A DNA stretch of 64,000 bases from Escherichia coli (GTDB lineage Bacteria > Pseudomonadota > Gammaproteobacteria > Enterobacterales > Enterobacteriaceae), in the NCBI RefSeq assembly GCF_003334305.1, contig NZ_QOWS01000007.1. One strand, 5' to 3'. This document shows positions 48,467 to 48,873 of this stretch, piece by piece. Below the pieces are notes generated by a model that was not told where the DNA came from, searched no databases, and saw nothing but the letters and a program-made list of their open reading frames with translations. The stretch's first letter is position 1; each line of letters starts with the position of its first letter. Both the position numbers and the translations under genes were made by a program.

Positions 48467-48538
48467 CCGAGGTAAAGTCTCCCCAAACCAAATTTCCACG
48501 CGCTATCGAAACGCCACTCCATTAGCTGCAATTTGAGC

Positions 48539-48566
48539 AAGCAAAGGGTTAGAGTGTCTCGTTTTT
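48539..48566 (-). promoter_or_regulatory. Sigma-E-dependent promoter of rpoE (P2 type)
   Basis: Minus-strand GGAACTT-16 nt-TCTAA, matching the sigma-E -35/-10 consensus (GGAACTT / TCTGA), about 75-100 nt upstream of rpoE ATG. Confidence 0.7.
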
Positions 48567-48873
48567 GTAAAGTTCCGTAACGCATCTGTTTTTGTTTGTC
48601 ATGCTGTAGACGGATCATTATCTATCATTATAAGTCTACAGAATCTGAACATCGCATTATCTGTGTAGAAATGCCCATTTAACTGCCTGAAGAGTAACCC
48701 AACGGCCTTTTTATTTCACCACCTAATCCTCCACCAGCCAGTAACTTCTCTTTTTCTCGCCGCCCTGCGTCAGCGTGTTTAGCCACTGTAACAAATATTA
48801 AAATAGCAGGTGTTTATTCGCACAACATGATGCTATGCTGACCAAACAGTGTTTAGTAAATTAAACAAAGAAA

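Follow-up and report, generated by a model that had tools for sequence, protein, structure and literature searches.

The window analysed here, a 64,000-nucleotide stretch of Escherichia coli DNA, carries the genes lepA, rseC, rseB, rseA and rpoE in this order on the minus strand and nadB on the plus strand, as judged from the translations of its open reading frames. A 701-nt query from this region occurs as a single chromosomal copy in 5426 of 5426 complete E. coli genomes, annotated there as rpoE, rseD and nadB, and matches of 100% to annotated E. coli chromosomes identify the locus as rpoE/rseD/nadB. The divergent orientation of rpoE-rseABC and nadB, proposed by an earlier sequence-only reading of this DNA, agrees with these 5426 genomes and with the RefSeq annotation. 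Strain MG1655 is collinear here, the window coordinate being the NC_000913.3 coordinate minus 2661546, so that the MG1655 start codons of rpoE (ATG at 2710012) and nadB (ATG at 2710420) correspond to window positions 48466 and 48874. The genes at the locus are the following.

47891-48466, minus strand: rpoE coding sequence (sigma-E, 191 aa), from RefSeq annotation and translation; the A of its ATG is position 48466.
48463-48618, minus strand: rseD, "rpoE leader peptide", 51 codons, from RefSeq; b4725 in MG1655.
48874-50496, plus strand: nadB (L-aspartate oxidase), the divergent neighbour, from translation and RefSeq.

A 202-aa, GTG-started rpoE reading frame in the list of open reading frames reflects the longest-ORF convention only. 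Since both ATGs can be placed through collinearity with MG1655, 48467-48873 is the exact rpoE-nadB spacer. The earlier reading had delimited this interval correctly as a divergent region shared with nadB (it measures exactly 407 bp from ATG to ATG), but had missed that it is partly coding, as it contains nearly all of rseD. The TGA of rseD overlaps the ATG of rpoE as ATGA at 48463-48466, and the 255 bp of the spacer outside rseD carry no annotation. No Rfam family was found at E <= 1 in 48200-49100.

The minus strand around the feature under study reads ...ttacGGAACTTtacaaaaacgagacacTCTAAccctttgcttgctc..., and both direct reading and a pattern search place GGAACTTTACAAAAACGAGACACTCTAA (GGAACTT-N16-TCTAA) at 48549-48576. 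The motif sequence, strand and spacing had been read correctly before, but the position first given for it, 48539-48566, was wrong by exactly 10 nt. We assign the elements of the promoter as follows.

48586-48600, minus strand: A-rich, UP-like tract ACAAACAAAAACA, upstream of the -35 element, with 48587-48599 at about -45 to -57.
48570-48576, minus strand: sigma-E -35 element GGAACTT (rpoE P6, formerly P2), matching the consensus in PMC1312014 at 7 of 7 positions.
48554-48569, minus strand: promoter spacer of 16 nt, by direct reading.
48549-48553, minus strand: sigma-E -10 element TCTAA, matching the TCAAA consensus (PMC1312014) at 4 of 5 positions.
48541-48542, minus strand: transcription start, placed from the literature; the published -75 is 48541, the purine preferred by the model is G48542.

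The sigma-E promoter model of Rhodius et al. (2006, PMC1312014), derived from 28 mapped promoters, combines a -35 GGAACTT and a -10 TCAAA with a spacer of 15-19 nt (16 strongly preferred), a discriminator of 5 or 6 nt, a distance of 25-28 nt (26/27 nt) from the -35 element to a purine start, and A/T-rich elements near -48 and -57. With G48542 as the start, the discriminator is 6 nt long, the start lies 27 nt from the -35 element and is a purine, which fits the preferred geometry, and the A-rich tract fits the A/T-rich upstream region of the model qualitatively; judged by its composition, this tract may serve as an UP element. The close match to the sigma-E consensus that had been claimed was therefore borne out by the -35 and -10 elements, and the lengths of spacer and discriminator, the purine at the start and the A/T richness further upstream also agree with the model. 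Other E. coli sigma-E promoters, such as rpoH P3, rseA P3, micA and rybB, have the -35 element, a TCAAA-like -10 element and the 16-nt spacer in common with the rpoE promoter, and promoters of the regulon likewise have a discriminator of 5/6 nt, start at a purine and are A/T-rich upstream of the -35 element (PMC1312014), whereas the rpoE -10 element TCTAA departs from TCAAA by one base. This third position, a T that is off consensus, is the same position that varies among genera (TC[T/C/A]AA).

The autoregulated promoter of rpoE, formerly P2 and now P6, is reported to start at -75 from the rpoE ATG (PMC8103513; the renaming also in PMC6358824). This falls on C48541, 1 nt from the model-preferred G48542, a difference that may be a matter of counting convention only. 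The sequence-only reading had expected a start about 7 nt downstream of TCTAA; G48542 is the seventh nucleotide, and the published start lies within 1 nt of it. Because the published start maps beside G48542, a start does exist where the motif predicts one. A full-text literature search for the MG1655 coordinates of the expected start returned no relevant paper. Compared with P2/P6 of E. coli K-12, the element is the same: the region is collinear with MG1655, the -75 start fits, and no difference was found. The name P2 reportedly stems from the nomenclature of Raina 1995 and Rouviere 1995, and Klein et al. 2016 are said to have renamed the promoter P6. Descriptions of sigma-E autoregulation go back to 1995, and those of the several promoters in the spacer to 2016.

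What the present work shows is the motif with its geometry, uniqueness within the window and conservation, together with the annotation; sigma-E dependence, mapped starts and the binding of CsrA and NadR are taken from papers. Positive autoregulation through the proximal promoter, which had been proposed for rpoE-rseABC in this DNA, is stated for rpoE in PMC6358824, PMC8103513 and PMC1312014, and autoregulation also in PMC8595263. In genomic SELEX, reconstituted sigma-E holoenzyme selects a fragment of the rpoE/nadB spacer (PMC5493296). A second sigma-E promoter, located upstream of rseA (PMC1312014), served as a positive control for our reading rule.

48086-48120, minus strand: rseA P3, CGAACCC-16-TCAGA (motif 48093-48120), inside rpoE; predicted start G48086.

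G48086 lies exactly 228 nt before the ATG of rseA (47858), and the rseA leader is reported to be 228 nt long (PMC8595263); the rule that was applied to the rpoE promoter therefore places the rseA P3 start where this leader requires it. Compared with the rpoE promoter, the -35 element of rseA P3 (CGAACCC) is much weaker.

From these results, we conclude with near certainty that the feature is the promoter from which sigma-E transcribes the rseD-rpoE-rseA-rseB-rseC operon, the old P2 and current P6; none of our results speaks against this. This promoter is known in detail and our analysis adds nothing new to it, but it illustrates that a textbook regulatory element is recoverable from raw sequence. 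Sigma-E RNA polymerase recognises GGAACTT (48570-48576) and TCTAA (48549-48553) on the minus strand and initiates at about 48541/48542, yielding a leader of about 76 nt ahead of the rpoE ATG. Sigma-E is normally kept at the membrane by the co-transcribed anti-sigma factor RseA, and envelope stress releases it through proteolysis of RseA. Free sigma-E then increases transcription of its own operon (positive feedback) and also that of rseA and rseB (delayed negative feedback). As the promoter drives the gene of the very sigma factor that it depends on, the positive feedback loop is closed.

The comparative analysis was based on an RpoE protein scan of species-representative genomes, which yielded 80 loci, and on an alignment of 14 Enterobacteriaceae genera. 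In 73 of the 80 gammaproteobacterial loci nadB and rpoE are divergent, with spacers of 148-578 bp. Across 27 genera of Enterobacterales, GGAACTT or GAACTT, followed after 16 nt by TC[T/C/A]AA, is located 94-114 nt (mostly 109-114 nt) before the rpoE ATG; the sequences of the 16-nt spacer and of the discriminator have almost nothing in common between these genera. Two fixed blocks separated by a variable spacer indicate the recognition footprint of a protein, that is, a promoter, unlike a coding sequence. In the 14-genus alignment the conserved blocks of the sigma-E promoter are the A-tract upstream of the -35 element (AAACAAAAACA, nearly invariant), GGAACTT, CTCTAA and, at +1, TGCTTGCTC. GGAAC is invariant in 14 of 14 genera, and the last two T of the -35 element vary only in Mangrovibacter (GGAACTC). 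The 81-nt promoter core is 100% identical in 5249 of the 5426 complete E. coli genomes, and the rpoE sigma-E promoter has been called highly conserved (PMC1312014).

Outside Enterobacterales, a strict TC.AA pattern for the -10 element misses the promoter, while a looser pattern detects GAACTT-N16/17-GTCnnA ahead of rpoE, on the side of the divergent nadB, in loci of Vibrionaceae, Aeromonas, Shewanella, Pseudoalteromonas and Pasteurellaceae; absence of the promoter from these groups was therefore rejected. There the -10 element differs from that of E. coli (GTCACA, GTCTGA, GTCTAC or GTCAGA), as does the distance between the element and the ATG (about 90-225 nt). Autoregulated ECF promoters of the RpoE/AlgU type in other Gammaproteobacteria include Salmonella rpoEp3, Vibrio cholerae rpoE P2 and Pseudomonas algU. 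The E. coli sigma-E model is reported to fail in Vibrio, Shewanella and Pseudomonas (PMC1312014). Rahnella, Hafnia, Serratia and Photorhabdus have a short rpoE-nadB spacer, of about 200-214 bp, and keep the sigma-E promoter, which suggests that the distal promoter region of E. coli is a lineage-specific extension.

Transcripts that start at the sigma-E promoter carry a short leader with the following features.

48467-48542, minus strand: 76-nt leader of the sigma-E-dependent rpoE mRNA, from sequence.
48518-48520, 48495-48497, 48480-48482 and 48466-48468, minus strand: four GGA motifs of the leader, the third in the Shine-Dalgarno sequence GGGGAGA and the fourth over the ATG.
48535-48542, minus strand: GCTTGCTC, the 5' end of the sigma-E transcript and candidate 5' helix arm, complementary to 48457-48464.
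48457-48464, minus strand: GAGCGAGC, candidate 3' helix arm, running from the G of the rpoE ATG through codons 2 and 3 to the first base of codon 4.

The 3' part of the leader, TTTGGGGAGAC.TTACCTCGGATG, is conserved in the 27 genera. The Shine-Dalgarno and start region, TTTGGGGAGAC.TTACCTCGGATGAGC, carries GGA motifs, in agreement with the reported CsrA sites: CsrA binds the rpoE leader with a Kd of 5 nM (PMC5694010), and three sites have been described, two of them over the Shine-Dalgarno sequence and the start codon (PMC7652899).

In addition to the promoter function, the first 8-11 nt of this transcript, GCUUGCUC, may pair with the start region GAGCGAGC and, together with a hairpin at the Shine-Dalgarno sequence, limit translation; on the basis of structure predictions we consider this side hypothesis possible, although the odds are against it. 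The helix closes the whole leader in the minimum-free-energy fold of the E. coli sequence, beside the Shine-Dalgarno hairpin, and is also present in the RNAalifold consensus of the 27 genera. In the alignment, 99.5% of helix cells are paired, and all changes but one keep the pairing through G-U, as one-sided transitions. In Pantoea sp. Nvir, where rpoE starts with ATGGGTGAG and the 5' arm is GTTCGCTC, both arms differ from those of E. coli and are still paired. The 5' arm forms an invariant island between the variable discriminator and a variable middle part of about 45 nt; its sequence TGCTTGCTC is invariant in 14 genera and near-invariant in 27.

Of the 27 taxa, 17 have a predicted probability of the helix of 0.87 or more, but 8 have one of 0.35 or less. 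The helix contains no double compensatory change and gives no covariation signal relative to shuffled sequences, the folding energy of the E. coli leader is no better than that of shuffles (z = -0.83), and the 3' arm is constrained by coding. Outside Enterobacterales the complementarity of the arms is patchy: it ranks in the top 3-4% of background windows in Grimontia, Oceanisphaera and one Colwellia, and is at background in Vibrio, Shewanella, Idiomarina and Pasteurellaceae. GTGC at +1 nevertheless persists there, so that the 5' arm may instead be constrained as a promoter or initial-transcript sequence.

If the helix forms, the closed leader might be opened by release of CsrA, by ribosomes on the upstream ORF or by another factor. 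The fuller form of this reading appears somewhat more doubtful still: the sigma-E transcript would be made in a translationally closed state, with GCUUGCUC paired to the start codon and codons 2-4 and with the Shine-Dalgarno hairpin, and would need an opening event, for which titration of CsrA, ribosomes on the short ORF within the leader or another factor would be candidates. If true, the leader helix would be a post-transcriptional brake on the positive feedback, specific to the transcript of this promoter. Such a translational brake, modelled from predicted folds, is plausible but unproven; one by-product is the testable idea that the transcript made from the sigma-E promoter hides the start codon of rpoE by means of its 5' end. 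A leader RNA thermometer was also considered and dropped, as the helix probability is the same at 30 and 42 °C in silico; a literature search for an rpoE leader RNA thermometer retrieved nothing relevant.

Returning to the sigma-E promoter, its motif is short and degenerate, and could in principle have arisen by chance, with all transcription of rpoE coming from the sigma-70, sigma-S and sigma-54 promoters further upstream. GGAACTT-N16-TCTAA has a single match in the 64-kb window, even with one mismatch permitted, and the exact motif occurs in none of 300 dinucleotide-preserving shuffles. With one mismatch, at least one match is found in 16 of 100 shuffles, and a looser class of motifs (a -35 element with one mismatch, N15-17 and a TCnAA-like -10 element) is present at chance frequency, 4 matches being observed in the window and 4.7 expected. 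As the relaxed motif is no more frequent than expected, the sequence match alone is no more than suggestive, and position and conservation carry the case. The orientation, distance and geometry of the motif fit the published start, its position is conserved in 27 genera of Enterobacterales, and other orders of Gammaproteobacteria have a related element ahead of rpoE. Together with the in vitro binding of the spacer by sigma-E holoenzyme (PMC5493296) and the autoregulation stated in several papers, this makes a chance match extremely improbable.

The sigma-E promoter lies wholly inside rseD, and its transcript therefore lacks the rseD start codon. Since the sigma-E start is located inside the gene, full-length RseD can be encoded only by transcripts from P1-P5; of these promoters, P5 has its published start 1 nt ahead of the ATG of rseD. 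RseD has been cited as a leader peptide (PMC8595263) and is included in the EcoCyc list of leader peptides quoted by PMC7815308. Only Escherichia (E. coli and E. albertii) has full-length rseD; Citrobacter carries a variant of 54 aa, and in 10 other genera of Enterobacteriaceae the frame stops 3-42 codons after the aligned ATG. The conserved stretches within rseD coincide with promoter and ribosome-binding signals, and substitutions in its conserved 3' part alter amino acids freely. From the truncated frames, the conservation that matches signals and the free amino-acid change, we conclude that RseD does not behave as a conserved protein. The arrangement shares with CsrA-repressed leaders coupled to an upstream ORF (idlP-iraD) an upstream stop codon that overlaps the start codon and GGA motifs over the Shine-Dalgarno sequence and start codon, but differs in that the sigma-E promoter starts inside the leader ORF and in that RseD lacks conservation outside Escherichia and Citrobacter.

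That the two blocks are conserved as rseD codons for ...RYGTLQKRDTLTL... and not as a promoter would suit the location of the motif within the annotated rseD coding sequence and the treatment of RseD as a real leader peptide in the sources above, but this explanation has next to no probability and was rejected, because the frame is truncated in the 10 genera in which GGAACTT and TCTAA remain fixed, the conservation consists of two blocks with 16 free bases between them and without codon periodicity, and the same promoter type precedes rpoE in taxa without such an ORF.

The sigma-E promoter is the most proximal of six rpoE promoters, whose starts are reported at -381 (P1), -327 (P2 and P3), -218 (P4), -153 (P5) and -75 (P6) (PMC8103513). 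The starts of P1-P6 and their regulators were taken from reviews of Klein et al. 2016 and mapped from the ATG at 48466. The supposition that the remaining 300 bp or so towards nadB hold additional promoters was confirmed, as the published P1-P5 starts and the NadR-repressed nadB promoter, with a perfect NadR operator, lie there. The hexamers listed below for P1-P5 and nadB are putative assignments from the sequence.

48847, minus strand: P1 start, -381 (PMC8103513).
48793-48808, minus strand: P2 (RpoN/QseF) and P3 (sigma-70/RcsB), common start at -327 = 48793 (PMC8103513; regulators also PMC6358824).
48800-48808, minus strand: extended -10-like TGcTATTTT near the P2/P3 start, our own reading of the sequence.
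48684-48719, minus strand: P4 (RpoS-type), start at -218 = 48684; start and RpoS dependence from PMC8103513 and PMC5736990.
48714-48719 and 48691-48696, minus strand: probable P4 hexamers GTGAAA and TACTCT, 17 nt apart.
48619-48632, minus strand: P5, start at -153 = 48619 (PMC8103513), with a perfect TATAAT at 48627-48632.
48850-48867, no strand: NadR operator TGTTTAGTAAATTAAACA, matching TGTTTA-N6-TAAACA perfectly, 6 nt ahead of the nadB start codon.
48834-48839, plus strand: candidate nadB -10 element TATGCT, putative, in the block GCTATGCT conserved in the 14-genus alignment.
48776-48793, no strand: candidate second, imperfect NadR-type box TGTTTAGCCACTGTAACA, direct repeat D1, 74 bp from the first.

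The published P4 start lies 7 nt after the end of GTGAAA-17-TACTCT, and both hexamers are invariant in the 14 genera. TATAAT lies 8 nt before the published P5 start, within the block GACTTATAATGA conserved in the same alignment. Dependence of P2 on RpoN/QseF is reported in reviews (PMC6358824, PMC8103513). For this published RpoN-dependent promoter, a search for the sigma-54 -24/-12 element TGGCAC-N5-TTGCA in 48600-48900 on either strand gave no convincing match; of the 11 specified bases, the best matches there have 7 on the plus strand and 6 on the minus strand, that of rpoE, and in no case are the -24 GG and the -12 GC both present. When 48300-49000 was scanned for simple sigma-70 promoters and terminators, no match was obtained, the scan being too strict for these weak or activator-dependent promoters.

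The NadR operator consensus is an 18-bp palindrome, TGTTTA-N6-TAAACA (PMC2330245), and NadR binds the nadB promoter in Salmonella (PMC12421817). In the 14-genus alignment, 18 of 18 positions of the operator TGTTTAATTTACTAAACA are invariant. The comparison thereby provides, as a by-product, a map of constrained blocks in the spacer, which comprise the NadR operator, the P4 and P5 hexamers, the UP, -35 and -10 elements of the sigma-E promoter, the block at +1 and the Shine-Dalgarno and start region. In the second NadR-type box, the CTAAAC half is invariant in the same alignment. The two boxes adjoin the published P1 and P2/P3 starts, and NAD status could, as a weaker reading, modulate the distal rpoE promoters.

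The divergent nadB-rpoE pair is retained at 73 of the 80 loci from the RpoE protein scan of species-representative genomes. In Rahnella, Hafnia, Serratia and Photorhabdus (L015, L016, L021, L022, L027 and L029; upstream of position 2501), the spacer is about 200–214 bp, the sigma-E promoter of rpoE is retained and the region corresponding to E. coli P1–P4 is missing. The distal rpoE promoters therefore look like a lineage-specific addition. Further afield, rpoE is preceded at about 90–225 nt by GAACTT-N16/17-GTCnnA with a GTGC-type +1 region after it (L030–L081) in Vibrionaceae, Aeromonas, Shewanella, Pseudoalteromonas, Colwellia and Pasteurellaceae.

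The features of the E. coli region discussed below, together with one inside rpoE, are as follows.

48850-48867, NadR-type box 1, perfect TGTTTA-N6-TAAACA, invariant in 14 genera
48776-48793, NadR-type box 2
48601-48644, inverted repeat ATGCTGTAGACGGATCATTAT / ATCATTATAAGTCTACAGAAT, with core CTGTAGAC...GTCTACAG
48463-48618, minus strand, rseD, annotated rpoE leader ORF of 51 codons
48086-48120, minus strand, rseA P3, CGAACCC-16-TCAGA, second sigma-E promoter of the operon, inside rpoE

The NadR-type boxes, 74 bp apart, adjoin the published rpoE starts P1 (48847) and P2/P3 (48793), so that occlusion by NadR might extend beyond nadB to the distal rpoE promoters. Reviews describe P2 (start at -327) as RpoN/QseF-dependent, yet neither strand of 48600-48900 showed a recognisable sigma-54 -24/-12 element: the best matches were 7/11 (plus strand) and 6/11 (minus strand), and GG and GC never occurred together.

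For P5, a perfect, conserved TATAAT is followed 8 nt on by the published start (48616-48632, minus strand). This start (-153, 48619) precedes the rseD ATG (48618) by 1 nt, and rseD would be essentially leaderless on P5 transcripts. The intact rseD ORF is confined to Escherichia; Citrobacter has a 54-codon variant, and ten other Enterobacteriaceae genera carry a stop 3–42 codons from the aligned ATG. Conservation within rseD falls in blocks that match promoter and ribosome-binding signals rather than constraint on the peptide. The P5 -10 element, the P5 start and the rseD start codon all fall within the inverted repeat, whose AGAC/GTCT cores are kept in most Enterobacteriaceae, and which may act as a protein site or, in P1–P4 transcripts, form an RNA hairpin.

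The sigma-E transcript has an invariant 5' end, GCUUGCUC (48535-48542, minus strand), whose sequence is complementary to that around the rpoE start codon, GAGCGAGC (48457-48464, minus strand). This pairing is the RNAalifold consensus for 27 Enterobacterales, among which G-U changes preserve it and no double compensatory change was found; the predicted stability of the helix is mixed. A mechanical ORF list begins rpoE at GTG 48499 (202 aa; 47891-48499, minus strand), a start rejected in favour of the annotated and conserved ATG at 48466 (191 aa).

At rseA P3, the predicted start, G48086, precedes the rseA ATG by exactly 228 nt, equal to the published value (PMC8595263). The rpoE sigma-E promoter has a much stronger -35 element than rseA P3.
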